64,000 nt of DNA from Gammaproteobacteria bacterium (GTDB taxonomy: Bacteria > Pseudomonadota > Gammaproteobacteria > Chromatiales > Chromatiaceae): NCBI GenBank assembly GCA_024206335.1, contig JAAGZL010000342.1, positions 747 through 64,746 of the forward strand, read 5' to 3'. Positions 21,189 through 35,253 of the stretch are shown piece after piece. Below the pieces are notes generated by a model. It did no database searches. It was not told the DNA's origin and saw nothing but the letters and a program-made list of their open reading frames with translations. The position numbers and the translations under genes were made by a program. The number at the start of each line of letters is the position of its first letter. Within the stretch, counting starts at the first letter, position 1.

Positions 21189-21503
21189 TCAGCTTCCTTC
21201 AGGCGGTATATATGTCTCATCATTCGGATTCATGAAGATAAACCTGAACTCATCTTCAGCAACGGCCAGATAGTCCATGGTCGCCCCTTCTAACAGGCGC
21301 ACATATTTTGGTTCTATAACAATCTCTATATCGCCGGCCTGAACATGAATATCATCATCTTTAGCCGCATCAAATCCAATCAGATAGACTATGGAACCAT
21401 CCTCTTTCATCTCTGCGGCCAAACGCAGTGGGTCGCCAACAGAGTCATTGGTCTCGGCTGATAGTTTTACCTGTTGTATAGCTGCATCTGTTAGTTTAAG
21501 CAT
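21189..21503 (-). CDS. dsrR: DsrR (IscA/HesB-like protein without the cluster-binding cysteines)
   Basis: A-type carrier fold pattern (LKLTDAAIQQVK...LRL...GF...FIFMNPN) with no Cys at all. It follows dsrN, as in Allochromatium vinosum. ATG at 21503 preceded by GAGGTGAG. Confidence 0.7.
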   Translation of the reverse strand: MLKLTDAAIQQVKLSAETNDSVGDPLRLAAEMKEDGSIVYLIGFDAAKDDDIHVQAGDIEIVIEPKYVRLLEGATMDYLAVAEDEFRFIFMNPNDETYIPPEGS

Positions 21504-21591
21504 ACTCACCTCTGGTTGAATCAAATTCCATATCTACTCTTAGGTTAGATCTACCAGAAACGCTATCGCTTATTCTGGCCTACGACAAGGC

Positions 21592-22983
21592 TCAAACCGT
21601 AGCCTGTCCTTCCTTCACACTGCGTACATGGGCAAGAAAACGCTTGGTCCAGTGATTACCAGCAACATCCCGAATATGGGTGTAGTTTGCCAGCATATTT
21701 TTATACACAATTCCATCATGGCTGCCATCTATCCCGGTACCACGCAGTACCTCGTAGGCATACTCCAGATCACAGTCCAGGTTCTCCAGCGCCGAGTAGT
21801 GGAACTCATGCGCAGCAATCTCAATCGGTCCCTCAGCCTCGGCCGGCCAGGGTCCATTTCCGGTCTCACGCAGTCGCACATAGCCCCTGCCCTGTGGCCT
21901 CTCATGCATGACCACGTCCCCGGGCAGAGCACCTACCATGGAGAATGTCTTCCCTTTCCAGGTCATGGTGCGCGCCAGATACATCAAGCCACCACACTCT
22001 GCGTATACCGGCCCACCGGACTCTATATACCCAAGCAGGTCGGCCCGCAGACTGGCATTGGCCTCCAACTGCTCCATAACCATCTCTGGAAACCCCCCAC
22101 CCAGGAAGATCCCATCCAGCTGCGGAAGTGCCGGATCGTGCAGGGTATCAATAGGCAATAGCTCTGCACCACCATCGCGCAACGCCTGCAGATCACCCGG
22201 ATAGTAGAAGCCGAAGGCCCGGTCTCTGGCATAGCCTATACGAACCGGTGGTTCCTGATTGGTGTGTACGACCGTCTCTGTATCCAGAGTGATGGCAGGA
22301 GTTGCCGTTGCAGCTATATCCAACACCCTTTGCAGATCAACCTGAGAGGCCACCGCCGCCCCCAGCATATCAATCTTTCTCTTGGCCCTGTCCGCCTCAT
22401 TGCTCGGCATCAGGCCCAGATGGCGCTCTTCAATCACCAGATCCGGATTGCTATGTACCGCACCCACCACCGGCACATCAGTATAGTGTTCAATCACATT
22501 GCACAGCTTGGCTTCATGACGGCTGCCGCCCACTTTGTTCAGGATAACACCGGCAATGTTCAGATCCTGATCAAAGGCCTGATAACCAAGGATCAGGGGG
22601 GCAATGCCTCTAGTCATGCCACGAGCATCAATCACCAGGATTACTGGGGATCCCAAAAGATTGGCCAGGGCTGCATTACTGTTGCTGCCGTGCAGGTCCA
22701 ACCCGTCATACAGACCCTTATTACCCTCAATCACCCCTATATCAGCCGTAGCCATGGAAGCGGAAAAACCCTGCTCTATCTCCTGGCGCTGCATGGTAAA
22801 AAAATCCAGATTCAGACAGGGACGATTACAGGTGGCAGACAACCAGAGAGGGTCGATATAATCCGGCCCCTTCTTGAACGGCTGCACGGCCAGCCCCCTA
22901 TCGCGCAGGGCGGCACTCAATCCGATGGAAAGGGTGGTTTTGCCCGAGGACTTATGGGCGGCAGAGATAAAGAAGTGCGACAT
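21592..22983 (-). CDS. dsrN: DsrN, cobyrinic acid a,c-diamide synthase homolog (siroheme amidase)
   Basis: MSHFFISAAHKSSGKTTLSIGL...FKKGPDYIDP (CbiA/CobB P-loop) plus a C-terminal glutamine amidotransferase domain (AECGGLMYL). Located inside the dsr cluster. Confidence 0.85.
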   Translation of the reverse strand: MSHFFISAAHKSSGKTTLSIGLSAALRDRGLAVQPFKKGPDYIDPLWLSATCNRPCLNLDFFTMQRQEIEQGFSASMATADIGVIEGNKGLYDGLDLHGSNSNAALANLLGSPVILVIDARGMTRGIAPLILGYQAFDQDLNIAGVILNKVGGSRHEAKLCNVIEHYTDVPVVGAVHSNPDLVIEERHLGLMPSNEADRAKRKIDMLGAAVASQVDLQRVLDIAATATPAITLDTETVVHTNQEPPVRIGYARDRAFGFYYPGDLQALRDGGAELLPIDTLHDPALPQLDGIFLGGGFPEMVMEQLEANASLRADLLGYIESGGPVYAECGGLMYLARTMTWKGKTFSMVGALPGDVVMHERPQGRGYVRLRETGNGPWPAEAEGPIEIAAHEFHYSALENLDCDLEYAYEVLRGTGIDGSHDGIVYKNMLANYTHIRDVAGNHWTKRFLAHVRSVKEGQATV

Positions 22984-23022
22984 AATAGCGATTGATTGTA
23001 CGAGATATCAGCAGGGATTAAA

Positions 23023-23048
23023 AAGCCCAATGCCGTGGCATTGGGCTT
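23023..23048 (-). terminator. Terminator/attenuator-like hairpin between dsrP and dsrN
   Basis: Perfect 12-bp arms AAGCCCAATGCC / GGCATTGGGCTT. On the minus-strand RNA the stem runs into UUUUUAAU. Confidence 0.5.
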
Positions 23049-23083
23049 ATAACCAATCTCAGCACGATCCGGTTCAGTATGAA

Positions 23084-24280
23084 TCAGATGCTGTCCGGGT
23101 CTTCCAGACTATCCGGTAACATCGGGAACATACGGGCCGCCACAGCAACAATGGTCATGGCCACAACCACCCCGCCAAAGCCCAGCATGGCCTCAGGCAA
23201 CGTGGGTACATAGCTATTAACCATTCCATCAAAAAAGCTGCTCTCAACCACCTCTTTACCCGGAAACAGGGTCATGGGGAAGGCCTGGCCTCCGATCACA
23301 ATCACGTATATCTGAAAGAAGCCACCCACCAACACCAGCACCGAAGCTGCCATCACAGCAAAACGCGAAGCGGAAAAGGCCGGGGAGTAGATCAGGAATA
23401 GTGGGATAACCCCACCAATCAACACCTGTCCAATCCAGAACATCTTGGTGTAGACACCACCTTCCAACAGGATAAAGTTCTCAATTCCATGGTGTTGGGT
23501 AATATAGAGATTGCTCAGATGATATACCGTGGCAAAGTATAGTACTGCCGCAACAAATACCCCCAGCAGGTTCCTCAGCTTGGCTATGCGCACATCACCT
23601 ATTTTACGGTCATCCCACCAGTAGGCAGCCATCAGTGTAATAATAAAAAATGCCAACCCATAGCTAAATGACATGATGATAAACATAGGCGCCATAATGG
23701 CTGCATCATACGCCTCACGCGCCACCAGGAAACCAAAGATGGAACCGGTACCAGTGGTCAGTGCCAGACGCCACAGAAATGCGGTGATACCAAGGGGCCG
23801 ATACAGGGCCTTGCCCTTACGGTCGATCATGGCCCACAGATAAAATCCAACAATGACAAAGAAGCCGGTATACAGGTAGATATTCCAGGCAAAGATGGAC
23901 TTGAAGTTGTACTTGGTCATGGCGATGATCAGGCGATCCGGGCGACCCAGATCAAGCACCAACACCATCAGGCCACCAGCCAGCAACGCAATGGCCAATA
24001 TACTGGAGAAGCGACCCAGAGGCTTATACATGGGACCGCCAAACACCGAGCCGATGGATGCCACATTCAGGGCGCCAGAGGCGGCCACGATCAGGAAGAT
24101 GGCAAATACATGGGGCAGACCCCAGACTATCTGGTTGGTCATGCCGGTCACATAGTGGCCGTTGTGTTCCATGTGGTACACAGACACAAGCGCCAGTAAG
24201 ATCAGAAAGGCCATGACGCCCATGCCAGTCCAGAAACGGGGTGATTCACACCCTAATTCGCGATAGTTAATCTTTTCCAT
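23084..24280 (-). CDS. dsrP: DsrP, NrfD/PsrC-like integral membrane quinone-interacting subunit
   Basis: 398 aa, about 10 TM helices, NrfD-like. Sits between dsrO and dsrN. Confidence 0.85.
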   Translation of the reverse strand: MEKINYRELGCESPRFWTGMGVMAFLILLALVSVYHMEHNGHYVTGMTNQIVWGLPHVFAIFLIVAASGALNVASIGSVFGGPMYKPLGRFSSILAIALLAGGLMVLVLDLGRPDRLIIAMTKYNFKSIFAWNIYLYTGFFVIVGFYLWAMIDRKGKALYRPLGITAFLWRLALTTGTGSIFGFLVAREAYDAAIMAPMFIIMSFSYGLAFFIITLMAAYWWDDRKIGDVRIAKLRNLLGVFVAAVLYFATVYHLSNLYITQHHGIENFILLEGGVYTKMFWIGQVLIGGVIPLFLIYSPAFSASRFAVMAASVLVLVGGFFQIYVIVIGGQAFPMTLFPGKEVVESSFFDGMVNSYVPTLPEAMLGFGGVVVAMTIVAVAARMFPMLPDSLEDPDSI

Positions 24281-24299
24281 CGAGTAGGCCCCTATACGG

Positions 24300-25076
24300 C
24301 TAGACGTTCGTGTACCGAACAGCAGTGTTCAACTTAAGATCTTCACGCAGCTGGCGGCTGTGGCTCTGCTTCAGCACCTTGGATACGGCGCTGTTAGGAT
24401 CCTTTAGATCCCCAAAGACAATGGCGTTATGACCCTCTTTGCTACAGGCTTCAGCACAGGCGGTATTGCCATCACCGGCATCCAGGCGGTTGGCGCAGAG
24501 ATTACATGCCTCAACACAACCCTTTCCGCGTGGGGATTCCACCACCTGCTCTGCCACATCGGCATGGATAAAGGAACGCGCCTTGTATGGGCAGGCCATC
24601 ATGCAGTAGCGACAACCGATGCAGATATGACGATCAACCATGACGATACCATCGGCACGCTTGAATGAAGCGCCGGTAGGACATACATCCACACATGGCG
24701 CCTCTTCACAGTGCTGACACATCAGCGGCAGGTTGCTCACCATTCCGGTCTGGGTATCCTTCAGTTTTACCTTGCGAATCCACTGCGGGCGCTGCTCATC
24801 CCACATCGCATCCGAATGACCTTCAGGCTTTTTCACCAGATCGATGCCATTCTCCTTCTCACAAGCAGAGACACAGGAGGAACATCCATCCGCACACTTA
24901 TTTGTGTAAATCAGCATGCCCCAGCGGGTGTTGCTGGAAGCGGCCTTCGTAGCGGCATTGGCATCAGCCGTAGTAAGAAGCACGCCTGGAGCAATCGTGG
25001 CCGTAGAGGCAGCGATTACTGACTTAGTGAGAAATTCACGTCGCTTCATATCTGGTTGTTGTTTGCGGTTACTCAT
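24300..25076 (-). CDS. dsrO: DsrO, periplasmic 4Fe-4S ferredoxin-like subunit (Tat signal)
   Basis: Twin-arginine signal KRREFLTKS and several CxxCxxCxxxCP ferredoxin motifs (CIGCRYCMMACP, CQHCEEAPCVDVCP). The ATG at 25076 is preferred over the upstream start at 25109, which would overlap dsrJ. Confidence 0.85.
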   Translation of the reverse strand: MSNRKQQPDMKRREFLTKSVIAASTATIAPGVLLTTADANAATKAASSNTRWGMLIYTNKCADGCSSCVSACEKENGIDLVKKPEGHSDAMWDEQRPQWIRKVKLKDTQTGMVSNLPLMCQHCEEAPCVDVCPTGASFKRADGIVMVDRHICIGCRYCMMACPYKARSFIHADVAEQVVESPRGKGCVEACNLCANRLDAGDGNTACAEACSKEGHNAIVFGDLKDPNSAVSKVLKQSHSRQLREDLKLNTAVRYTNV

Positions 25077-25078
25077 AT

Positions 25079-25471
25079 TCACTTCTCCTCCGGCACCTTG
25101 CGGTGACACTGGAAACAGGTGATATTCACCGCCGCATAGTCATGACAAGAATCGCAAAACTGATCTTTTGCATTAACCGGCACCGGGTGTCCCTTCTTAT
25201 CTTTTGAGGCATGACAGTTGACGCATTCGGCCAGGGCGAATTTACTGCTCCTGTCACCCTTATGTACTACCTCGTCCCGCTGGTGCTTGAGATATTCCAT
25301 GTGGTTGCGCCGCATATCCATCTGGGGGGCAACACATCCACCCTTATCCATACCTGCAGCCTTTGATCCTTCTACAACGGTCGAATCACTGATGGCGGCG
25401 GTGGCGAATGAGAGCAATACGCTTGCCACCATCATGACCGCTACCCGTTTGAGGTCTATTAACCTATGCAT
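25079..25471 (-). CDS. dsrJ: DsrJ, triheme cytochrome c
   Basis: 130 aa, N-terminal signal anchor, three CxxCH motifs (CVNCH, CDSCH, CFQCH). Confidence 0.85.
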   Translation of the reverse strand: MHRLIDLKRVAVMMVASVLLSFATAAISDSTVVEGSKAAGMDKGGCVAPQMDMRRNHMEYLKHQRDEVVHKGDRSSKFALAECVNCHASKDKKGHPVPVNAKDQFCDSCHDYAAVNITCFQCHRKVPEEK

Positions 25472-25501
25472 TACAGCTAAGCTCCTATTGACTGGAGAGG
25501 T

Positions 25502-27037
25502 TTAATCATCATTTTCCTGCTCTTCATCATCACCTTCACTCTTCTGAGTGGTGAGAATGAGGGCATTACCGACCAACTGGTGAACGCTGACGATCTGGTC
25601 CATTTCCATACCGAAGTAAGGCAGCACCTTGGTGAACTGGCTCTTACAGATGGCACAGATGGCGGCCATATGGGTAACGCCTTTTTCATTCATGGCGTTT
25701 TGCAGGGCCGTCATTCTGGGCACTGCACCATTAACCCGGGTCTCCATCAGATCATCGGTCAGCAGGCCACCACCTCCACCACAGCAGAAGGTCTTTTCAC
25801 CGATGGTGTCCTGATGCATGTCCACATAGTTATTGCAGACCGCCTTGATTACGTTGCGCGGAATCTCAAACTGGCCACCTGGCTTATCCCCCATGCGGGT
25901 GGCTCTGGCCACGTTGCAGGAATCATGAAAGGTGAGGACCATATCGTCATTCTGTGACTTATCAAGGTTGAGTCTGCCCTCCTTGATCAAATCATCGGTG
26001 AACTCGCAGATATGCTGCGGCACCGGGTAGTCAGGATCGAGAAAGTCGAATGGGCCAGCCAGGGTATTCAGGAAGGCGTATGCCACACGCCAGGCGTGAC
26101 CACACTCACCAAAAACAATACGCTTTACACCCAGTTCCAATGCAGCCTCACGTACCCGCAACGCCACTCGCCGCATGTTCTCGTAACTGCCAATGAACAT
26201 ACCAAAGTTACCGGCCTCGGAGGCAGTGGTACTCATGGTCCAGCTGATCCCGGCCTCGTGAAACACCTTACCGTAGCCGATCAAACCATCCACATGGGGT
26301 TCAACAAAAAAGTCGGCTGATGGGGTAACCAGCAGAACCTCGGCACCCTTCACGTCCAGTGGGAATTTTACCTCTACGCCAAAGTCATCCACCATGTCCT
26401 CTTCCAGACCTTCGAGGGTATTCTCGATGGCGGGACCGGGCAGACCCAGGTTGTTACCAATCTTATGGACCTTGGCAATGATTTCATTGCAGTACTTCTG
26501 GCCATAGCCAATGCTGTCCAGGATCTCACGTGCCGCCATGGAGATCTCTGCGGTATCTATGCCATAAGGGCAGAATACTGAGCAACGGCGGCACTGGGAG
26601 CACTGATGATAGTAGTTGTACCAGTCATCCAGGGTCTCTCGGGTCAGATCCTCGGCACCCACCAGCTTGGGAAAATACTTACCAGCAAAGGTAAAGTAGC
26701 GCCGGTATACCTTGCGCAGTAGATCCTGACGACCTACCGGCATGTTTTTGGGGTCCTTGGTGCTTAAGAAGTACTGACACTTGTCGGTACAGGAACCGCA
26801 CTTAACGCAGGCATCAAGAAACACCTGGAGCGAACGGTAACGACCGCGTAGATCATCCAGTTTTTCCAGTGCTTTATCGTGCCAATCTTCAACCAGTTCT
26901 CCTGGAAACCCAAGATCTGTATTGTGTTCAGGCTTGGTGACCACGAATGACTTAACGTGCGCCATCGTGCCCTCCTCAACCTCGGGAACATCCACATACT
27001 CTTGGAGTTCTGGTACGTCAAATTCTGCCTTGGCCAT
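25502..27037 (-). CDS. dsrK: DsrK, HdrD-like iron-sulfur catalytic subunit
   Basis: CVKCGSCTDKC and CSQCRRCSVFCP ferredoxin motifs plus CCG domains (FCCGGGGG). Confidence 0.9.
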   Translation of the reverse strand: MAKAEFDVPELQEYVDVPEVEEGTMAHVKSFVVTKPEHNTDLGFPGELVEDWHDKALEKLDDLRGRYRSLQVFLDACVKCGSCTDKCQYFLSTKDPKNMPVGRQDLLRKVYRRYFTFAGKYFPKLVGAEDLTRETLDDWYNYYHQCSQCRRCSVFCPYGIDTAEISMAAREILDSIGYGQKYCNEIIAKVHKIGNNLGLPGPAIENTLEGLEEDMVDDFGVEVKFPLDVKGAEVLLVTPSADFFVEPHVDGLIGYGKVFHEAGISWTMSTTASEAGNFGMFIGSYENMRRVALRVREAALELGVKRIVFGECGHAWRVAYAFLNTLAGPFDFLDPDYPVPQHICEFTDDLIKEGRLNLDKSQNDDMVLTFHDSCNVARATRMGDKPGGQFEIPRNVIKAVCNNYVDMHQDTIGEKTFCCGGGGGLLTDDLMETRVNGAVPRMTALQNAMNEKGVTHMAAICAICKSQFTKVLPYFGMEMDQIVSVHQLVGNALILTTQKSEGDDEEQENDD

Positions 27038-27064
27038 GGAATTTCCTCTTCGGCTCAGCTCAGT

Positions 27065-27799
27065 CTAATTCTGTTCTTCTTCGAGCGCCTTCGCCCATGG
27101 GACGATATGGCGTTTCTCGCGTGGATTATCAACCTGGTTCCTGGTTGGGCTAAAGAAAATACCAGGCACGTGCAGCAACTTGCTAAACGGAAAGATCAGC
27201 ATCAGCAGAGCAACCAGAGAGAGATGGATAATGAGTGGGAAATCAGCCGGCAGCTGTCCACCGTTAAAGGTAAAGAACTGTTTGATGGCGACGATATCCG
27301 TGTGCACTACGAACGTCATCATCAGGCCACTGAACCCGATAAATCCCAGCATTAGCAGCATCAGGTAATCAGATGGCGCTGAGATATAACGCACCCGATC
27401 AACCAGAACACGCCGCAGAAACAGCCCGACCAGCCCCAACACCATGCCAAAACCAGCATACATGCCAAACGGCTGGACCAGTTCAATCAGGGTCCATACC
27501 ACTGCGGGGACGGCATCCGGTTCAATGAAGTAACGCAGATGTCGGATTAATACCAGGAGCAGGGCCATGTGAAAAACCCAGGAAAAGATCCAGGTCCACT
27601 TGGTGCTCTTGAACAGACTCTCGAAAAATACCACTTCCCGGAACATACGTAACACAACACCACTCTTGGTAACAGGTGCTGGTGTAGTAACAATCTTCAA
27701 TGGAACCGGGGTCTTGGCATACTGGATGATCTTCAGCGTCAGGCCCACCACAAAGACAAGGCTTGCGAGAATAAACAGCAGCGCAAAGAAAAATGACAT
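27065..27799 (-). CDS. dsrM: DsrM, NarI-like diheme cytochrome b
   Basis: Five-TM protein with conserved His residues. Sits directly upstream of dsrK. The ATG at 27799 (MSFFFALLF) is preferred over the start at 27844. Confidence 0.85.
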   Translation of the reverse strand: MSFFFALLFILASLVFVVGLTLKIIQYAKTPVPLKIVTTPAPVTKSGVVLRMFREVVFFESLFKSTKWTWIFSWVFHMALLLVLIRHLRYFIEPDAVPAVVWTLIELVQPFGMYAGFGMVLGLVGLFLRRVLVDRVRYISAPSDYLMLLMLGFIGFSGLMMTFVVHTDIVAIKQFFTFNGGQLPADFPLIIHLSLVALLMLIFPFSKLLHVPGIFFSPTRNQVDNPREKRHIVPWAKALEEEQN

Positions 27800-27967
27800 G
27801 ATCCTGCGATCCTCCGTCGGGTTTAACCAGCCCCACAAGAGCACACACCGCAGAATAAAAGCGAGGTTAATGGCCTCCTAATATATAGACGAAAACCGTA
27901 TCTATTATTATTCAGCTATCCAGTTCAGACAGCAACAGCCACGTACTTATGAGGTTCTGGTCTAACT

Positions 27968-27999
27968 GACCGGCAGCAGACTTTTGTCTACTGCCAGTC
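27968..27999 (-). promoter_or_regulatory. 14-bp intercistronic stem-loop just 3' of dsrC
   Basis: Minus-strand RNA GACUGGCAGUAGAC-AAAA-GUCUGCUGCCGGUC (12 Watson-Crick and 2 G-U pairs). No U-tract follows on the coding strand. The A7/T7 tract lies on the dsrC side. Confidence 0.5.
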
Positions 28000-28014
28000 A
28001 TGTTTTTTTACTGC

Positions 28015-28347
28015 TTAGATACAGCCGGTTGGCTTAGGCAGACCAGCATAGCGGCAGGCCTGCTTACCTGGGCCGTATGGGAACAGGGCGTACAGGTATT
28101 TGCTGTTGCCCTTTTCCTTACCAAGCTTCTTACCAACAGCCTTGGTGAGAACACGTACTGCAGGAGCAATCTGATATTCCTGGTAGTACTCACGCAGAAA
28201 GTTAATGATGTCCCAATGCTCATCACCAAGCTCCAGGTCATCCTCTGCAGACATAACGTTTGCAATACCAGGCACCCAGTCGTCCAGGTTTACCAGATAA
28301 CCTTCTTCATCAACTTCATAACTTTTACCGTCTACTTCGATAGCCAT
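28015..28347 (-). CDS. dsrC: DsrC, sulfur-trafficking/heterodisulfide protein
   Basis: 110 aa. The C-terminal arm ...GPGKQACRYAGLPKPTGCI carries both conserved cysteines (CysB in QAC, penultimate CysA). Confidence 0.9.
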   Translation of the reverse strand: MAIEVDGKSYEVDEEGYLVNLDDWVPGIANVMSAEDDLELGDEHWDIINFLREYYQEYQIAPAVRVLTKAVGKKLGKEKGNSKYLYALFPYGPGKQACRYAGLPKPTGCI

Positions 28348-28391
28348 GCACTTTCTCCTAACGTTAATCTATTTGGGGCAGATATTCTGAA

Positions 28392-28697
28392 TCAGACCCA
28401 GGCTTGAACTTTGTCGTGTTCGGCAGACAGGTCTACAAAACCCGCATAGTCCACGATCTCAATTCCATCAATCATCTTATCATCAGTAATGCCACGCGCC
28501 TTCAGGTCAGCACCCAGAGCATACAACTTTACTCCATCGAATCCCGCCACCAATGGCTCAATACTGGCACCCTTAAGAACCGCATAAACTGCATCCTCAT
28601 AGAAGAGTATGGAACTACCCTCTAAAGCATGAGCCAGACAGCTACCAACTGAACTTTTCTCAAAAGGTGATTTATTTACTGTGTGTAAAATACTCAT
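28392..28697 (-). CDS. dsrH: DsrH
   Basis: 101 aa DsrH/TusB fold (MSILHTVNKSPF...SC...). Third gene of the dsrEFH triplet. Confidence 0.85.
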   Translation of the reverse strand: MSILHTVNKSPFEKSSVGSCLAHALEGSSILFYEDAVYAVLKGASIEPLVAGFDGVKLYALGADLKARGITDDKMIDGIEIVDYAGFVDLSAEHDKVQAWV

Positions 28698-28711
28698 TCG
28701 TATGCTCCGCC

Positions 28712-29122
28712 CTAGAAACTGAAAATGACATCCTGCTGATCCAGCACACTGCTGAGTTCAGCACGGCTGACAACACGGATTGAGTCTTTTTCTGCCCAAT
28801 CTTCATCCTCATCTTCCCATTTCAGATCCATCAGATCATCAATGGTCAGGCCACGTTCTTCCAGTGACTCCTGCTCTACGTAAAGTTTGGTGACATCATA
28901 ATCACCCAGAGCGGCATAGGTTGGAGAGAAATTCTTGGTCTCTATATCAGACGTATCCTGGTTCTTCAACAGCTGATACACGCCATCATCAAAGAATGCC
29001 ACGCTGACATCCTGATCAAAGGCAGCACCAATCAAAACAACCTCCAGTGATTCCCAGGCATAGATAGTACCATGGGGAGCACGGCGGTTGACGTACATGA
29101 ATTTTTTAATATCTTCAGACAT
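28712..29122 (-). CDS. dsrF: DsrF
   Basis: 136 aa DsrF/TusC-like, lying between dsrE and dsrH. Confidence 0.85.
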   Translation of the reverse strand: MSEDIKKFMYVNRRAPHGTIYAWESLEVVLIGAAFDQDVSVAFFDDGVYQLLKNQDTSDIETKNFSPTYAALGDYDVTKLYVEQESLEERGLTIDDLMDLKWEDEDEDWAEKDSIRVVSRAELSSVLDQQDVIFSF

Positions 29123-29139
29123 GGATTCAACCTCTGTGC

Positions 29140-29532
29140 TTAATCACCGAAAACGACCAGACGATCGGCCTGGACAGCAGCTTCGATCAACTGCCCCAGC
29201 CCGGAGATACGAAACCCGGGGGCAATATTCTCAGCGTCTTTGCCATTACGTTGCATCTCACCCTCATCCACGATACCGCGACGTTGGGCAGCTGCCACAC
29301 AAACCACCATATCCAGATCATGCTTTTCTGCCAACTCGCTCCAGCGGTTAACAATATTGCGATCATCCTGTGGAGGAGTGGTCAGCTTAGTGCCGTTATT
29401 TACACCATCGTGGTAGAAGAAGACACGAAAGATCTCGTGCCCCTTCTCCAGTGCCGCCTTGGTAAATTGATAGGCGGAATCGGTAGCCTGATGCTGATAT
29501 GGCCCTTCATTTACTTGAATTGAAAACTTCAT
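29140..29532 (-). CDS. dsrE: DsrE
   Basis: 130 aa. MKFSIQVNEGPY... and the active-site Cys context DMVVCVAAAQRRG are typical of DsrE/TusD. Confidence 0.9.
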   Translation of the reverse strand: MKFSIQVNEGPYQHQATDSAYQFTKAALEKGHEIFRVFFYHDGVNNGTKLTTPPQDDRNIVNRWSELAEKHDLDMVVCVAAAQRRGIVDEGEMQRNGKDAENIAPGFRISGLGQLIEAAVQADRLVVFGD

Positions 29533-29563
29533 CTGTTTTCCTTTTAACTTTCGTCAGACCAAC

Positions 29564-30634
29564 TCAGAAACGAACGTGAGAAGACGCATTCAAGTTAGCA
29601 CGACCACCACGCCAGTTATCAATGTGGTACTTGGTAAACGGCAGATCAGTCTTCTCGAAGAAGCTACCCCAGCCAATACGCTCAGCCCACTCACCAATAC
29701 GCTCGTAATCCTTGGCGTCTTCCTTATAGGCCGCGAGGATGCGTTTTACCACATCTCCAACCTCAGGCCAGCGCGGCGGATTATTTGGCACGTTGGATGC
29801 GACCAGTTTATGGAAGGTCGGCTTGCTACGGGCGTTGGAGTTCTTACCACCTACCCAGATAGCAAAGTTAGAATGCTCAGGATCGTTGATCTGCATGGGC
29901 GGACATGGTGGAAAACATGCACCACAACATACGCACTTGCGCTCATCAACTTCAAGAGAAGGCTTGCCGTTAACCATTGCCGGGCGAATAGCAGCTACCG
30001 GGCAACGTGCAACAACCGTAGGACGCTCACATACGTTGGCAACCAGATCATGGTTGATCTTAGGTGGCTTAACGTGCTGAATGTTGATGGCAATATCACC
30101 CTGTCCGCCGCAGTTAATCTGGCAGCAGGAGGTGGTAATCTTTACCCGGTTAGGCATCTCTTCATGTTCGAACTCGTGAACCAGTTCATCCATCAGGGCC
30201 TTAACCGCACCAGAGGCGTCGGTACCAGGAATATCGCAGTGCAACCAACCCTGGGTGTGGGCAATCATGGATACTGAGTTACCAGTACCACCGATTGGAT
30301 AGCCGCACTCGGTCAGCTTATCCATCAGCGGCTTAACCTGCGCCTCGGTGCTCACCATATATTCAATGTTGGAACGAGAGGTAAAACGGACATAACCTTC
30401 AGCCAAATCATCGGCGATATCCATAAGCTCACGAATCATGGTTACGTCCATCTGACGCGGGGTGCCGGCACGTACGGTCCAGAGCTCATCGCCGCTGTTG
30501 GCAACATGGCGCAGAACACCAGGACGTGGGCGATCATGGAACTTCCAATCACCATAGTTCTTCTTCATTACCGGATGCAGATATGGATCTATCTCCGGTA
30601 CACCTGTCTCTTCGGGCATGCGAGGTTGGGACAT
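29564..30634 (-). CDS. dsrB: Dissimilatory sulfite reductase beta subunit (oxidative type)
   Basis: Siroheme/FeS cysteine clusters (TTSCCQINCGG, CPVAAI, CVCCGACFPPCP). ATG at 30634 preceded by GGAGA; the track's TTG start at 30646 is unlikely. Confidence 0.9.
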   Translation of the reverse strand: MSQPRMPEETGVPEIDPYLHPVMKKNYGDWKFHDRPRPGVLRHVANSGDELWTVRAGTPRQMDVTMIRELMDIADDLAEGYVRFTSRSNIEYMVSTEAQVKPLMDKLTECGYPIGGTGNSVSMIAHTQGWLHCDIPGTDASGAVKALMDELVHEFEHEEMPNRVKITTSCCQINCGGQGDIAINIQHVKPPKINHDLVANVCERPTVVARCPVAAIRPAMVNGKPSLEVDERKCVCCGACFPPCPPMQINDPEHSNFAIWVGGKNSNARSKPTFHKLVASNVPNNPPRWPEVGDVVKRILAAYKEDAKDYERIGEWAERIGWGSFFEKTDLPFTKYHIDNWRGGRANLNASSHVRF

Positions 30635-30672
30635 AATTATCTCCAAATATCTCTATTTCTAATTCATCTCGT

Positions 30673-30705
30673 GGCGCATAACCGAACCTGGGTCCGGTAT
30701 GCGCC
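30673..30705 (-). promoter_or_regulatory. GC-rich stem-loop in the dsrA-dsrB spacer
   Basis: GGCGCATAACCG (30673-30684) pairs with CGGTATGCGCC (30695-30705) with one bulged A. It sits in a 110-nt intercistronic gap. Confidence 0.45.
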
Positions 30706-30744
30706 GCGTATAAACCTGACGGTCAAGGCTGACAAACAGTCTTA

Positions 30745-31989
30745 TCAGTCGGCAGCCTTGCGCTCATTCCACTTGGCTGCTTCCTCATCCCAACCGTCCA
30801 TACGTATGTATGAGTTCGAACGTGGATTGCTGATCATGTTTGGATCCACTTCGAGGCCGACACCTTCCAGGAAACCTGCCAGGCCGATGCGCTCGATCAT
30901 CTCACCGGTACGCTCATGCTCCAGGGCATTCTCGGCAAAGAAGTCGATTACTTCGGTAGCCAACTCTTCCAGAGCCTCGAAGTCATCATCGGTTTCAAGC
31001 TTCATGAATGGGACGATCACGGTACCCATGAGGTCACCGATCTTCAAGGTACGCTTACCGCCACACAGGATGGTGATACCCTTGTCATCTCCAGGAGAGA
31101 GCGCCTTGTTCATGACATTCAGACAGTGCATGCAGCGCACGCAGTTCTTGTTGTCCACGTCCAGGGTGTCGTCATCGTTCAGAGACAGCGCCTTAGTCGG
31201 GCAGCGGGTGATTACGTTGTCTACAACGTACTTACGACCCTTCTCACCTACGTAAGCCTTGACCTCTGCCTGATCCACCTTCATATCGTCACGCCAGGTA
31301 CCGAGAACGGCAAAGTCGGAACGCTGAATGGAGTTAACGCAGTCGTTGGCGCAACCGGATACTTTATACTTGAACTTGTATGGCAGTGCCGGACGATGCA
31401 TATCATCCAGCACATTATTGACCAGCATACGCATGGTGCGCGCTTCATCAAAGCAGGACATCTCACAACGTGCAGCACCAACGCAGGACATACCGGTACG
31501 TACAGCAGGACCTGCACCACCCATATCAAAGCCCATTTCGTTGAACTCATCGAATGCAACCTGCACCTTCTCGGTGGTGCAACCCTGCATCATGATGTCG
31601 CCAGTCTGCCCATGCAGGGCAATCAGGCCAGCGCCATGCTCTTCCCAGATGTCACAGAACTTACGCATGGTAGCTGTGTCATAGTGCATGCCTGGAGGCG
31701 GAATGATACGGATGGTATGGAACTCGGCACATGCAGGAAACAGCGGGTTGTTATTGTCATCCTTCAGCTCGGTGAAGCGAGGAATAACACCGCCACCGTA
31801 ACCAATAACGCCAACGGTTCCGCCCTTCCAGTAGCCTAATTTAGTCTCGTATGAGGTCTCAAGCTGACCCAACAGGTCAACTACCATGTCCTTATCCTTT
31901 GCCAGACGTTTCAGACCAGTTACGAAACTCGGCCATGGGCCAGTTTCCAGCTGATCGAGCATCGGAGTATCATGCAGTGGTTTTGCCAT
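30745..31989 (-). CDS. dsrA: Dissimilatory sulfite reductase alpha subunit (oxidative type)
   Basis: 414 aa. MAKPLHDTPMLDQLETGPWPSFV..., siroheme-binding Cys motifs (CVGAARCEMSC, GCANDC) and a ferredoxin insert (CPTKAL...CVRCMHC). Confidence 0.95.
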   Translation of the reverse strand: MAKPLHDTPMLDQLETGPWPSFVTGLKRLAKDKDMVVDLLGQLETSYETKLGYWKGGTVGVIGYGGGVIPRFTELKDDNNNPLFPACAEFHTIRIIPPPGMHYDTATMRKFCDIWEEHGAGLIALHGQTGDIMMQGCTTEKVQVAFDEFNEMGFDMGGAGPAVRTGMSCVGAARCEMSCFDEARTMRMLVNNVLDDMHRPALPYKFKYKVSGCANDCVNSIQRSDFAVLGTWRDDMKVDQAEVKAYVGEKGRKYVVDNVITRCPTKALSLNDDDTLDVDNKNCVRCMHCLNVMNKALSPGDDKGITILCGGKRTLKIGDLMGTVIVPFMKLETDDDFEALEELATEVIDFFAENALEHERTGEMIERIGLAGFLEGVGLEVDPNMISNPRSNSYIRMDGWDEEAAKWNERKAAD

Positions 31990-32553
31990 TACTTTAATCT
32001 CCCAATAATCATTAAATATGGGTTATCTCACCACACCCTTGGATTCATGCTTTGAAATCACAAAAAATCCGGGTGAATAATCTATGCGAATCGGAACCTT
32101 TAGCAACAAACTTACCAAACGCTCCATAGCTACAGAATGGCAAAAAGTTTAGAATTTCCTAATGAAGTAAAATATCCCTACGATGGGGTAGCGGTATAAA
32201 AAAACTACTCCCCACTATGGGGTATATTTTTAAAAATAATGCGCATATTATTTTTATTTTAGGGGGCATTACCTTGTTGATTAGAGATACTATTTTCATA
32301 CTGGACCGCCTTTTTTTATCGGCAAATCCAGTGGCCAGGGCACTATTTGATATATATCAAGCAATCAAATACGCGTTGAAATATTGCTATCCCGCCCCAA
32401 CCAATCCCATATCGATCAAACTATTTAATGCAAACCCACATTTATCCTATCTCCATCTTCTTGCCAATGGATAGTGAATGGAGTTGAATAATATACACCC
32501 GCCCAATCAACGGCGAGCATCCGGCACACAACGCCAGGCCAGCAGATTCAGCC

Positions 32554-32769
32554 ATGGCACCCCTTAACAACCTGATAGAGGTCCTAATCAGAATGCTGTA
32601 CCTAAGTGAGATATTGATCCAAAATCCGGATCTGCAATCTTTCGAACAACTACTCTCCGCAGTCAAAGAGCGCTCTAAGAGTGAGATGTTCTTCCGTATT
32701 GATGTAAAACCTCAATACCAGGACACACCTGAAGACTGGGAAGACCGCATGGAAGCGGCATTTACATAG
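32554..32769 (+). CDS. Small hypothetical protein, first ORF of the dsrA-divergent module
   Basis: 71-aa ORF ending 11 nt before the next gene. Weak ribosome-binding site. No family recognised. Confidence 0.35.
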   Translation: MAPLNNLIEVLIRMLYLSEILIQNPDLQSFEQLLSAVKERSKSEMFFRIDVKPQYQDTPEDWEDRMEAAFT

Positions 32770-32780
32770 AGCCTATAGAG

Positions 32781-33491
32781 ATGAAGTACCTGAAAAACGA
32801 ATTTCGTATCGGTGATGCTGAAGGTGGTGAAGACGCAGTCATATCCACCCAGAACCTGGAATCCAAGCTAATGCAGATCCAGGATGAAATAGAGCAGCTG
32901 CCCGCCAGCACCAATACCAGCCAACGGCTGAAACTGACACTGGACCGGTGCTACCTGTTACTGGATCTGGAGCGTCAGGATGAGGCATGGAACAGCTCCA
33001 ACACCACGCTTAAACAGGCCCTGACAGAGAATCTATGGACCCGGGCCGTAGAATCCTGCGATATTATGTTCCAGACTGGTAATAAGGAGTCCATCCGGGC
33101 CCTGGCCCATGGCATCTGGCTGGCAGTCACCTTTCCTATCGACCCTGAACTCAGTGTTGCCATGCTGCAGCACCTGATCGACGAAACCCCGGACAACTCC
33201 GACGGTGCCGCGGTTGCAGCCGCAACTGCCTGCTACCTGGTGGATCTGCGAGCCAAGGGAGAACAGCACGAAGAGTTACATTTCTTCACTAGCCAGTTGA
33301 TGGGACAGGTGGCAAAACGCCACAGCCAGGTCGAGGAGAAAGAGATCTTTGACTTCTGGGTTGAGCGTCTGGAGCTGAATGAGCCAGGCAAATTCCTCCC
33401 ACGACTGGCACAGGTTCTGGATGTCCTCACCGAGGACAACTGGTGGTTTGACCGGGATCAGTTAAGAGATCTGATACCGGGCGAAGCCTAA
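32781..33491 (+). CDS. Hypothetical helical protein (dsrA-divergent module)
   Basis: 236-aa ORF with coding-like composition, tightly spaced with its neighbours. No family recognised. Confidence 0.55.
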   Translation: MKYLKNEFRIGDAEGGEDAVISTQNLESKLMQIQDEIEQLPASTNTSQRLKLTLDRCYLLLDLERQDEAWNSSNTTLKQALTENLWTRAVESCDIMFQTGNKESIRALAHGIWLAVTFPIDPELSVAMLQHLIDETPDNSDGAAVAAATACYLVDLRAKGEQHEELHFFTSQLMGQVAKRHSQVEEKEIFDFWVERLELNEPGKFLPRLAQVLDVLTEDNWWFDRDQLRDLIPGEA

Positions 33492-33508: not shown

Positions 33509-34168
33509 ATGCTCTGGCAGGATGAAAAGGAAAATACCCCTTACCAAATACCGGATGATGTGGTCGATCTATCGTTCAGCATCAGTTGCACATCCATACC
33601 AGTAGACAACGCCTACGCCCTATCCAACGCCATTATTGCGATACTGCCATGGTTCAGCAGTGAACCAGAGGCCGGACTGCACATTATGCAAGGCGGTGCC
33701 TCCATCAATGGCTGGCATCGGCCGGAGACCGAGGACGCAACACTGCTCCTGTCGAAACGCTCCAAACTGCGCCTGCGTCTACCCAAGCACAGGGTCAAAG
33801 ATGCAGAACAGCTCTGCGGCAAGCTACTGGATGTGTCCGGTTACAGCGTCGAAGTTGGAACGTTCAAGACCCTGCTCCTTGGCAACACCGACACCCTGTT
33901 ATCCCGTCACATAGTCTCTGCCATTGAAGAGGACGAAACCGAATTTACCGAACGCATGCTGCAGGAACTACGGGGTATGGGGCTGGAACTCACCAAGATA
34001 CTATCCGGCAGAGATCACGCCCTGGCCGGGCCGGACGGCCCCATCAATACCAAATCCCTGCTGGTAAGCGGCATGACAGCCGAAGATGCTGTCACTCTCC
34101 AGGCAAAGGGAATTGGTCCAGGCCGCAGTATGGGATTCGGCTTGTTCATTGCGTCAAAGAGCTTATAA
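33509..34168 (+). CDS. Orphan Cas6-like RAMP protein (Cas6/Cmx6-like)
   Basis: 219 aa. The C-terminal KGIGPGRSMGFGLFI fits the Cas6 glycine-rich loop G-h-G-x5-G-h-G exactly. Its size and near-C-terminal loop position fit Cas6. No CRISPR array or other cas genes in the window. Confidence 0.5.
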   Translation: MLWQDEKENTPYQIPDDVVDLSFSISCTSIPVDNAYALSNAIIAILPWFSSEPEAGLHIMQGGASINGWHRPETEDATLLLSKRSKLRLRLPKHRVKDAEQLCGKLLDVSGYSVEVGTFKTLLLGNTDTLLSRHIVSAIEEDETEFTERMLQELRGMGLELTKILSGRDHALAGPDGPINTKSLLVSGMTAEDAVTLQAKGIGPGRSMGFGLFIASKSL

Positions 34169-34210
34169 TATTGGCTTATGTTAATTTAATTAATTTCCCT
34201 GCCTTCGCCA

Positions 34211-34238
34211 CCACGTGAGAGATTTCATACTCATGTGG
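34211..34238 (+). promoter_or_regulatory. Stem-loop between the Cas6-like gene and the DsrC-like gene
   Basis: CCACGTGAG-agatttcata-CTCATGTGG: 9 bp including one G-U pair, with a 10-nt loop. It lies 52 nt upstream of the DsrC-like ATG. Confidence 0.4.
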
Positions 34239-34289
34239 GCCAGGTAGGGCAACAGAATTCAGCATAGATTTAAAATAAGGAGAATACAG

Positions 34290-34634
34290 ATGGCATACGA
34301 ACTGAACGGCGCAACCATTGAGACCAACGCCAATGGTTACCTGGAAAACCTAGACGACTGGAGTGAAGAGCTGGCAGGGGTTATTGCCGCAGCTGAGGGT
34401 ATCGAACTGTCAGACCGGGGTTGGGAGATAATCAACTACCTGCGCGATGAATACCTCAACAACAACAGCAATCAGCCCAACGAACGTCACATGGTCAAAC
34501 ACTTCAAGAAGCTCTGGACCGACCTGGACAAGGTGGACACCAAGGCCCTGTACATACACTTCCCCATGGGCCCCGCTAAACAGGCCGGTAAGATTGCCGG
34601 ACTGCCTGAGACCCGCCGTAAGGGTGGATACTAG
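34290..34634 (+). CDS. DsrC/TusE-family protein lacking both conserved cysteines (RspA-type)
   Basis: Aligns by eye with the dsrC product (YLENLDDWSEELA..., HFPMGPAKQAGKIAGLPE vs LFPYGPGKQACRYAGLPK). It has no Cys anywhere and ends in RRKGGY instead of PTGCI. AGGAGA ribosome-binding site. Confidence 0.8.
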   Translation: MAYELNGATIETNANGYLENLDDWSEELAGVIAAAEGIELSDRGWEIINYLRDEYLNNNSNQPNERHMVKHFKKLWTDLDKVDTKALYIHFPMGPAKQAGKIAGLPETRRKGGY

Positions 34635-34654: not shown

Positions 34655-34685
34655 ATCAACCTGCCAGTGATGCTGGCAGGTTGAT
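34655..34685 (+). promoter_or_regulatory. Perfect 13-bp stem-loop sequestering the start codon of the next gene
   Basis: ATCAACCTGCCAG-tgatg-CTGGCAGGTTGAT. The A and T of the ATG at 34684 are in the 3' arm. No U-tract follows. Confidence 0.55.
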
Positions 34686-35253
34686 GGAGAGCACATTGGC
34701 ACTAAGAATCAAGAGTCACTGGCACAAAGAAGAGAAAGATAGATCTATCGACGAGATTGCCGGAGCTATAGCCTTCAGCAGTTGGCGCATAGCCATGGAG
34801 AAGGCGATAACACTGCACAGTGAGCAGTTCGACTACAGCTCTGACCGACAACGCCTGGACGTCATAGCCGAGTACCTGCTGTTTTCAGCACAGGTGGTGG
34901 ACCGCCTGGTACATAAAAACTTCACCCCGCAAGAACGTCAAGAGCTTATTATCTCCCTTGTTACCCGTCTGGCAGAACATCTGCAGGAGAACAGCCAGGA
35001 CCTACTGGGTTCCGGAGACTACCGCACCCCATTCATCAACAAGTTCAACCTACGCTCCGAAGAGTACGCCCAACTAAGCTTTGACCAGGACGACGGCCCC
35101 AGCTACCCCTTCATGCGCCACCTTGGATACGAGATCCAACAGCTTATGGGGGACGAACAGGAAAACCGCTGGATCATCGACCAGGTAATGGACAAGGATG
35201 GGTTTGAGGTCTATACCCAGCTCAAAAAACTGGTAAAAAACCTCACTACCTAA
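34684..35253 (+). CDS. Hypothetical protein, last gene of the dsrA-divergent module
   Basis: About 189-aa ORF with coding-like composition. No family recognised. Confidence 0.55.
   Translation: MESTLALRIKSHWHKEEKDRSIDEIAGAIAFSSWRIAMEKAITLHSEQFDYSSDRQRLDVIAEYLLFSAQVVDRLVHKNFTPQERQELIISLVTRLAEHLQENSQDLLGSGDYRTPFINKFNLRSEEYAQLSFDQDDGPSYPFMRHLGYEIQQLMGDEQENRWIIDQVMDKDGFEVYTQLKKLVKNLTT

Follow-up and report, generated by a model that had tools for sequence, protein, structure and literature searches.

A Cas6/Cmx6-family protein encoded beside the dsr locus of sulfur-oxidising Gamma- and Betaproteobacteria

Cas6 enzymes are metal-independent endoribonucleases that bind RNA hairpins and cut at their base, catalysis usually depending on a His together with Tyr, Lys or Ser. 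The subject here is a Cas6-like gene, Cas6L, present in a 64 kb stretch of DNA (the window) from a gammaproteobacterium of the Chromatiaceae, where it lies next to the dsr operon of sulfur oxidation. [quoted passage not shown] PCC 6714. It falls into the same Pfam, TIGRFAM and PADLOC families as Cas6L, with around 27% identity over 90% of the length, and the two have in common F23, D33, R90, P92, R133, F146, Q198, F213 and a glycine-rich loop. However, the cyanobacterial gene is part of an operon, cas6-cas3-cmx8-cas7-cas5-cas4/cas1-cas2, whose other members are not neighbours of Cas6L in the window. The proteins also differ: WP_071880938.1 has an isoelectric point (pI) of 9.4, both His34 and His50, and a beta-hairpin longer by 10 residues, whereas Cas6L is acidic, lacks His50 and bears both an extra N-terminal extension of 15 amino acids and a 9-amino-acid insert, GWxRPExPD.

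The best structural match to Cas6L is the Cas6 of a type I-B Cascade from a CRISPR-associated transposon (CAST; PDB chains 8fcj_B and 8fcu_B), at a root mean square deviation of 2.3-2.8 Å and a sequence identity of 22-23%. It shares N34 and H58 with the window protein but, unlike Cas6L, is a Cascade subunit bound to CRISPR RNA (crRNA), with a pI of 9.2 (aligned part), nine Lys/Arg residues in its long beta-hairpin and a His50. The double-RRM fold is also that of Cas6e/CasE (from E. coli, and Cse3 of T. thermophilus; Foldseek E about 1e-6, template modelling (TM) scores 0.4-0.5), although the sequence likeness of CasE to Cas6L is limited to the glycine-rich loop (E about 0.4), and CasE acts in Cascade on CRISPR repeats.

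Cas proteins working away from adaptive immunity have been reviewed, the exaptations including Tn7-CAST, type IV systems, a Streptomyces I-E derivative with a STAND NTPase, HRAMP and solo Cas4 (PMC8730458, PMC6452270, PMC5704561). As in Cas6L, a Cas part is in each case under selection outside adaptive immunity with neither adaptation module nor array. In those examples, though, what was exapted is an effector module or Cas4, to the benefit of mobile elements or defence, while Cas6L is a single Cas6 homologue tied to an operon of core energy metabolism. On the sulfur side, DsrR (IscA-like) and DsrS are small accessory genes of dsr for which, as for Cas6L, a regulatory rather than a catalytic role has been proposed; they are unrelated to it in sequence and fold, and lie at the 3' end of the dsr operon instead of divergently from dsrA. 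No mention of a dsr-linked Cas6 was found in the literature searched, including the exaptation reviews and recent surveys of dsr gene content. The evidence below leads us to conclude, with high confidence, that the window protein represents a large, distinct, acidic subfamily of Cas6/Cmx6 (PF09559) which has departed from CRISPR-Cas and, in sulfur-oxidising Gamma- and Betaproteobacteria, now accompanies the oxidative dsr locus as an accessory gene passed on by vertical inheritance. It very probably forms part of a module, divergent from dsrAB, that consists of a 58-residue protein (sp58), an optional 236-residue protein (up236), Cas6L itself and a cysteine-less paralogue of DsrC ending in RKGGY.

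The gene and its characteristic loop are placed as follows:

33509-34168, plus strand: Cas6-like gene (Cas6L), 219 amino acids, of the dsr-type subfamily of PF09559/Cmx6.
34109-34141, plus strand: codons of the glycine-rich loop GIGPGRSMGFG, residues 201-211 of Cas6L.

The open reading frame begins with an ATG, 9 nt upstream of which stands a GAGG ribosome-binding site, and its product terminates in ...KGIGPGRSMGFGLFIASKSL. That W3 is kept in all 153 distinct dsr-type sequences compared supports this ATG as the start. Cas6L has a genuine Cas6 fold and belongs, as a RAMP protein, to the Cmx6 family. In the Pfam scan PF09559 ('Cas6') matches its full length at E=2e-50 and 171.8 bits, and six Cas6 models of PADLOC match with E-values from 5e-50 to 7e-18. 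The NCBIfam model TIGR02807 (cas6_cmx6) scores 105.4 bits (E=3.7e-30), a marginal pass of the equivalog cutoff of 98.85; against the PADLOC equivalent of this model the Synechocystis Cmx6 reaches 206 bits and the window protein 105. When PDB sequences were searched with the family profile, the top entry was the CAST Cas6 8fcj_B (E=2.9e-21), and the same search aligned the glycine-rich loop of Cas6L with that of E. coli CasE, GIGPAKSMGCGLL against GIGPGRSMGFGLF, as well as with that of the PmcCAST Cas6. The AlphaFold2 model (mean predicted local distance difference test score, pLDDT, 88.2; predicted TM score 0.84) contains beta-alpha-beta-beta-alpha-beta elements, and Foldseek pairs it with 8fcj_B/8fcu_B at TM 0.78-0.80; 37 structures match at E<=0.001, and every one is a Cas6 or a Cas6e. 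Model and structural matches together show two tandem ferredoxin-like/RRM domains.

A preliminary description, made from the DNA letters, had already recognised the Cas6 hallmark G-h-G-x5-G-h-G near the C-terminus and a length suited to a double-RRM Cas6; on both counts it was right. The loop glycines G201, G203, G209 and G211 are invariant (153/153) and are the same glycines kept by CRISPR-linked Cmx6, and the motif is more than a chance match. Equally accurate was its statement that such proteins are labelled type I-MYXAN: MCP4125649.1, 96% identical to Cas6L, carries the NCBI name 'type I-MYXAN CRISPR-associated protein Cas6/Cmx6'. The 96%-identical P0001 has the same synteny as the window; an exact match to the window protein was looked for in public assemblies and is not recorded there.

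Cas6L belongs to no CRISPR-Cas locus. The 64 kb window yielded neither tandem nor spaced direct repeats, an Rfam scan that included the CRISPR-DR families returned only a tRNA, with nothing relevant at E<=1 around Cas6L, and Pfam revealed no cas gene among the long open reading frames judged likely to be genes. The absence of CRISPR-Cas context noted in the preliminary description thus holds for the window. For comparison, a scan of one genome per species yielded 128 relatives of Cas6L, of which 80 loci were retained (genome loci), and a metagenome scan with the family profile yielded at least 500 more, of which another 80 were retained (metagenome loci); in the metagenomes the single Cas6L sequence as query had given no match, and the profile succeeded. 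Searching these 160 loci and the window (1.72 Mb of flanks) by tblastn with the six I-MYXAN partners encoded at the pSYLB locus (Cas3, Cmx8, Cas7, Cas5, Cas4-Cas1 and Cas2) produced no match at all, while the Cas6 of the same locus matched in all 161 sequences. A CRISPR array was present in one of the 80 genome loci scanned, L073, from a sponge-associated genome. This array was rejected as a context for Cas6L as it belongs to a type II Cas9-Cas1-Cas2 locus; type II systems do not use Cas6. The locus (L073:16675-20629) lies 6 kb from Cas6L and comprises about 22 copies of a 36 nt repeat, GTTGTCTTAGCACCACCTATTCCTGAGTGGTAAGCT, with cas2, cas1 and a Cas9 fragment. The same region also encodes a TnpB/Cas12f-like IS605 OrfB (L073:12846-14111), and the sister genomes lack the type II locus. 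Of the four features of a type I-MYXAN Cas6, then, a cas operon, a nearby array and the sequence hallmarks fail, with the profile cutoff alone reached, and because three of four fail the equivalog annotation 'type I-MYXAN Cas6' is misleading.

The fixed neighbour of Cas6L is instead the dsr operon, in the window represented by:

21189-31989, minus strand: dsrABEFHCMK-(J)-OPN-R operon, divergent from the Cas6L module; DsrA at 30745-31989 and DsrB at 29564-30646.
21189-21524, minus strand: DsrR, last gene of the operon.

All 80 genome loci come from sulfur-oxidising Gamma- or Betaproteobacteria, with hosts among the Sedimenticolaceae, Ca. Thiodiazotropha, Thiohalomonadaceae, Ectothiorhodospiraceae, Thiotrichales, Betaproteobacteria and sponge symbionts. 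Locating gene neighbours by tblastn with the window proteins placed dsrA 2-3 kb from Cas6L on the opposite strand in 64 of the 80 genome loci and in 29 of the 32 metagenome loci with enough flank. The gene order of the window recurs unchanged in the Lamellibrachia satsuma symbiont and in GCA_024224955.1. Furthermore, the identity of each Cas6L to that of the window correlates with the corresponding identities of DsrA and DsrB (Pearson 0.70 and 0.78, respectively); since the divergence of Cas6L tracks that of DsrA and DsrB, vertical co-inheritance with dsr is indicated. Such a fixed position is unlike that of cas genes, which are typically mobile. The linkage does have exceptions: in two metagenome loci (L088:992-1870 and L121:2776-3654, both minus strand) sp58 and Cas6L occur without dsr or the DsrC-like gene. 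There the pair is divergent from a gene for a 291-amino-acid CxxCxxCC (PF03692) protein, and no cas genes were found. These two loci show that Cas6L and sp58 can exist as a pair without the DsrC-like gene.

Sequence comparison separates the dsr-linked proteins from their CRISPR-linked relatives. An exhaustive search with the family profile, clustered at 50% identity, gave 1473 clusters at E<=1e-3 and 275 at E<=1e-30. The dsr type has five hallmarks, namely W48, W69, R84, H58 and the 9-residue insert. Each of the best 150 clusters has at least three of them and 110 have all five; none of 40 cyanobacterial CRISPR-linked Cmx6 proteins has more than one. When clustering is at 50% identity, the dsr-type hallmarks occur in over 150 clusters. 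On average two members of the subfamily are 36% identical, whereas identity between the dsr-type and CRISPR-linked groups averages 25%; the groups differ further in these respects:

pI: dsr-type median 5.24 (window 5.15); CRISPR-linked, cyanobacterial clade median 9.46 and PmcCAST Cas6 9.2.
N-terminal extension: dsr-type about 15 amino acids, acidic; CRISPR-linked, absent.
Insert at 69-77: dsr-type GWxRPExPD, 9 residues; CRISPR-linked, absent.
Beta-hairpin of the C-terminal RRM: dsr-type 28 amino acids with 3.8 Lys/Arg; CRISPR-linked 38 amino acids with 6-9 Lys/Arg.
Segment 84-95: dsr-type strongly basic; CRISPR-linked less basic.

Thirteen residues, W3, D20, W48, G68, W69, R84, R90, G167, Q198, G201, G203, G209 and G211, are invariant in the 153 distinct dsr-type sequences, implying strong purifying selection, and 159 loci carry an intact open reading frame of full length. 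Close to invariant are R71, R95, R133 (149/153), E143, K163, K217, H58, H34, H61 and C27. Residues common to CRISPR-linked Cmx6, the PmcCAST Cas6 and Cas6L are F23, R90, L102, G104, R133, F146, Q198, G201, G203, R206, G211 and F213. The histidines are distributed differently. Position 50 is His in 26 of 29 cyanobacterial Cmx6 proteins and in the PmcCAST Cas6 but in none of the 153 dsr-type sequences; position 34 is His in 23 of the 29 and in 148 of the 153, with Asn in both the window protein and PmcCAST. H58 (151/153) and H61 (135/153) are specific to the subfamily, the window protein keeping the former and having Gln at the latter. No mapping of catalytic residues for this family was found in the sources read, the Synechocystis Cas6-1 paper included.

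The genes that accompany Cas6L on the plus strand of the window are:

32593-32769, plus strand: sp58, a 58-amino-acid acidic protein that opens the module; no other partner of Cas6L is as constant.
32781-33491, plus strand: up236, a 236-amino-acid protein, between sp58 and Cas6L, its stop codon 17 nt before the Cas6L ATG.
34290-34634, plus strand: DsrC/TusE-family paralogue without cysteine (PF04358, E=6e-31).
34681-35253, plus strand: dn190, a protein of about 185-190 amino acids, linked to dsr at variable distance in 53 of 80 loci.

The gaps between sp58 and up236 (11 nt) and between up236 and Cas6L (17 nt) are short enough to place the three genes in one operon. The preliminary description called Cas6L stand-alone, which is apt as regards CRISPR-Cas; it overlooked the divergent dsrAB, the 58-residue partner and the cysteine-less DsrC paralogue. 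The first of these partners, sp58, occurs in 132 of the 137 loci with enough upstream DNA, directly before either Cas6L or up236. Over 323 protein clusters make up its family, and their length is exactly 58 amino acids almost throughout; with 25 invariant columns and identities of 71-100%, its conservation exceeds that of Cas6L. The protein (MLYLSE...WEDRLEAAFT, ending in ...DTPEDWEDRLEAAFT) has a pI of 4.3 and is modelled as a small alpha/beta unit (pLDDT 84.6). It has no relatives in Pfam, NCBIfam, PADLOC or PDB sequences, and its model gave no fold match. Some sp58 records bear the NCBI name 'sulfur relay protein DsrC', a name we find unsupported as there is no similarity to DsrC.

Directly upstream of Cas6L, up236 is found in 55 of 132 loci; the 71 loci of the 132 in which a TauD/TfdA-family dioxygenase gene lies upstream of sp58 are among those without up236 (examples are L052:8867-9769, L014:8817-9797 and L073:8892-9809). 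In 69 loci a YbiX-type 2-oxoglutarate-Fe(II) hydroxylase is encoded about 1.7 kb downstream, as at L073:11549-12217 on the minus strand, and two oxygen-dependent enzymes, TauD-like and YbiX-type, thus accompany the module. Neither up236 nor dn190 matches anything in Pfam, NCBIfam, PADLOC or PDB sequences. At the predicted TTG/ATG start of dn190 there is a perfect 13 bp hairpin in the window (34655-34685; CAACCUGCCAGUG AUG CUGGCAGGUUG), which could occlude the translation start or, without a U-tract, could terminate the DsrC-like gene.

The DsrC-like gene, of family TIGR03342 (TusE/DsrC/DsvC), adjoins Cas6L in 78 of 80 genome loci and 44 of 48 metagenome loci (about 92-97%). In every locus its product ends in ...AGLP(E/Y/Q)xxRKGGY, with RKGGY invariant, where the true DsrC of the same loci ends in ...AGLPKPTGC(I/V). 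The protein (pI 5.1) is free of cysteine in nearly all loci and so cannot carry persulfide or relay sulfur. The paralogue does retain the flexible C-terminal arm; that its GG-Y ending recalls the GG C-terminus of ubiquitin-like sulfur carriers is speculation by analogy.

The intergenic DNA was examined for elements on which the module might act, and three merit description:

34197-34249, plus strand: stem-loop with outer stem CCCUGCCU/AGGUAGGG, between Cas6L and the DsrC-like gene; candidate cis-element, near clade only.
32147-32236, minus strand: promoter-like block and two palindromes, TCCCTACGATGGGGTA and TCCCCACTATGGGGTA, upstream of dsrA.
32460-32492, plus strand: conserved block CTTGCCAA-N13-GAGTTGAAT (TTGCCA, 17 nt, TTGAAT), upstream of sp58.

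The stem-loop has a folding z-score of -2.97, with 84% of cells paired, and shows three compensatory pairs among 7 sequences, more than in shuffled and slid controls, in what is a small and clade-limited sample. Where the Cas6L and DsrC-like genes are co-directional the spacer between them varies from 27 to about 370 nt, and the stem-loop is absent where it measures 27-65 nt. In most loci a strong hairpin separates dsrA from dsrB. Its sequence drifts freely, and we rejected it as a conserved site since the hairpin is frequent but the sequence is not conserved. The four hairpins put forward in the preliminary description (34211-34238, 34655-34685, 27968-27999 and 30673-30705) are stable, with z-scores from -3 to -6.6; their sequences are unrelated and the idea of a common target among them was likewise rejected. 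Nor does the intergenic DNA of 81 loci contain any conserved 9-mer that might represent a repeat-like RNA motif, the sole frequent 9-mers deriving from the Cas6L start codon region, ribosome-binding sites and terminators. In the DNA upstream of dsrA the two palindromes, each of 16 nt and 34 nt apart, stand beside a 30 nt block that is near-invariant in 7 close loci; the region 32147-32236 probably holds the promoter of dsr together with an operator at which a regulator would act. The block at 32460-32492 is invariant in a 7-sequence alignment and is a candidate promoter of the sp58-up236-Cas6L operon. A promoter consensus scan called neither of these two blocks.

What the protein does can be addressed with less assurance. 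Our tentative preference is that Cas6L is an exapted Cas6 that has kept its RNA binding and acts as a control on dsr-locus transcripts. The protein would bind RNA by its ancestral face, consisting of R90, R133, Q198 and the glycine-rich loop, to which the subfamily-specific R71, R84, R95, K163 and K217 would add. It would recognise one or a few structured sites in dsr-locus transcripts, candidates being the intercistronic stem-loop of its own operon, the dsrA 5' leader and the dsrA-dsrB hairpin, and binding would set the stability, processing or translation of the mRNA. In this way Cas6L, with sp58 and the DsrC-like protein, would be a post-transcriptional controller of sulfur oxidation. Retention of RNA binding at the ancestral site is the most economical assumption because R90, R133, Q198 and the glycine-rich loop are shared with crRNA-binding relatives and are near-invariant, and a dsr-locus transcript is the most likely target because Cas6L is tied to dsr. 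Binding without obligatory cleavage is favoured since the window protein lacks two of the three histidines typical of the subfamily (having N34 and Q61). The compensatory stem near Cas6L in the near clade and the strong dsrA-dsrB hairpins in most loci are consistent with this picture. As background from the pathway itself, DsrR reportedly acts post-transcriptionally, according to work attributed to Grimm and colleagues in 2010. DsrR has been reported to be involved in regulating the oxidation of sulfur (PMC11406059).

Several observations weigh against RNA control. The dsr-type proteins are acidic (5.15 in the window and 5.24 as the median, against 9.2-9.5 for CRISPR-linked ones), as are the partners sp58 (4.3) and the DsrC-like protein (5.1). 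The beta-hairpin of the C-terminal RRM, which by analogy with Cas6e we take as the element that would bind the RNA groove, is shorter by 10 residues and has 3.8 basic residues in place of 6-9. Basic residues of the CRISPR-linked clade have been lost, including K138, R152, K196, K205 and R207. His50 is never present in the 153 dsr-type sequences, and the window protein in addition has N34 and Q61. Finally, the hairpin sequences vary freely, the intercistronic stem occurs in one clade only, and the 9-mer scan offers no shared motif. These same points bear on the proposal in the preliminary description of a domesticated Cas6 for host mRNA processing. Its first half stands, the gene being fixed beside dsr in the 160 related loci and under purifying selection; its second half finds little encouragement, given hairpins that share no sequence, of which that at 34211-34238 is limited to one clade and lies in a spacer of very variable length, the lack of a conserved intergenic 9-mer, and an acidic protein with a short, less basic beta-hairpin and without His50.

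The protein surface is acidic, the hairpin truncated, His50 lost and no conserved RNA motif found; for these reasons a role at the protein level is nearly as likely as RNA control, though in itself still doubtful. The Cas6 fold would here be a scaffold, acting without RNA, that binds sp58 and/or the RKGGY arm of the DsrC paralogue, and the targets of the complex would be Dsr enzymes: it might, for instance, plug or tune the channel of DsrAB that normally receives the arm of DsrC; alternatively it would be a transcriptional co-regulator at the palindromes upstream of dsrA, where the predicted operator is conserved. The loss of the long basic beta-hairpin and of several basic residues from an acidic subfamily, the failure of the 9-mer scan over 81 loci to reveal a conserved RNA motif and the tight linkage to two small proteins (sp58 in 132/137 loci, the DsrC-like gene in about 92-97%) all suit such a scaffold, in which the invariant basic R71, R84, R90, R95, K163 and K217 could dock the acidic sp58 with its ending ...DTPEDWEDRLEAAFT, and C27, H34, H58 and H61, specific to the subfamily, could together bind a ligand or a metal at a new site. 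That site, however, is not universal, H34 and H61 being missing from the window clade. R90, Q198 and the loop glycines are kept in 153/153 sequences and R133 in 149/153; as these are shared with crRNA-binding relatives and near-invariant, retained nucleic-acid binding is the simplest explanation for them. The kept RNA-binding residues would equally suit an adaptor for RNA modification, Cas6L binding tRNA or another RNA and working with its TusE/DsrC-family neighbour; the analogy is with TusE, from which MnmA on tRNA receives its sulfur. That neighbour does belong to TIGR03342 and the window does encode Tgt and QueA, although 15 kb away. Yet the partner lacks cysteine in nearly all loci, which leaves no possibility of a persulfide, the module contains no thiolase or MnmA-like gene, and the fixed partner locus is dsrAB and not tRNA genes, all of which makes this explanation improbable.

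Processing of crRNA in trans, for a CRISPR-Cas locus elsewhere in the genome, is the scenario that the preliminary description named as fatal to its own proposal. Some class 1 systems do borrow a Cas6 in trans (PMC12669027), and Cas6L lies above the TIGR02807 equivalog cutoff. Set against these precedents are a position beside dsrA that is fixed from the Sedimenticolaceae to the Thiotrichales and Betaproteobacteria, with divergence parallel to that of DsrAB; the absence of any I-MYXAN partner in the 1.72 Mb of flanks; the fact that a single CRISPR occurs in the vicinity of the 160 loci, a type II Cas9 system, which does not use Cas6; and the acidity, truncated hairpin and missing His50 of the protein itself. 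We consider this explanation very unlikely, and give still less credence to the notion that Cas6L is what remains, in decay, of a lost CRISPR-Cas locus, or that its motif matches by chance. Nothing but the lack of cas neighbours speaks for that notion, which the conservation data refute: the open reading frame is intact at full length in 159 loci, profile E-values reach 1e-50, 13 residues are invariant despite a mean identity of about 36%, and the hallmarks extend over more than 150 clusters. Trans crRNA processing and gene decay are thus essentially excluded.

Some other features of the sulfur locus deserve mention. In the window dsr operon dsrK is followed directly by J/O/P/N/R without dsrL, no DsrL homologue was found in the 64 kb, and the situation is the same in the close relatives L001-L007; dsrL follows dsrK in 37 more distant loci and in the Lamellibrachia symbiont. 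The general view is that sulfur oxidation by the Dsr pathway requires DsrL. On the 3' side of the module the plus strand of the window carries genes for an M48/TPR peptidase, soxY, soxZ and a rhodanese. In the distant flanks of the sulfur locus are encoded a hemerythrin-PAS protein (340-1539, plus strand) and a hemerythrin-NIT-HAMP-PAS-GGDEF-EAL protein (45642-48872, plus strand), two hemerythrin-domain signalling proteins that are possible sensors of O2/NO or nitrate.

The findings suggest that a part of CRISPR has been re-used for a metabolic or regulatory job. For annotation, they mean that the hundreds of 'type I-MYXAN Cas6/Cmx6' proteins in sulfur oxidisers are not evidence of CRISPR-Cas and inflate the counts of surveys. 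More speculatively, and with appreciable doubt on our part, Cas6L, sp58 and the cysteine-free DsrC paralogue may constitute an unrecognised three-part control module of the reverse-Dsr pathway. In that event a single Cas6 would for the first time be seen exapted into core energy metabolism, and the long-sought dsr regulator would have a concrete candidate. If true, the retention of a single Cas6 homologue beside a respiratory operon over hundreds of millions of years would amount to domestication of a new kind, and would offer a natural experiment on the retargeting of a repeat-specific RNase. For sulfur microbiology the module, which is widespread and extends to the symbionts of tubeworms and clams, provides three testable candidate genes for the regulation of oxidative dsr.

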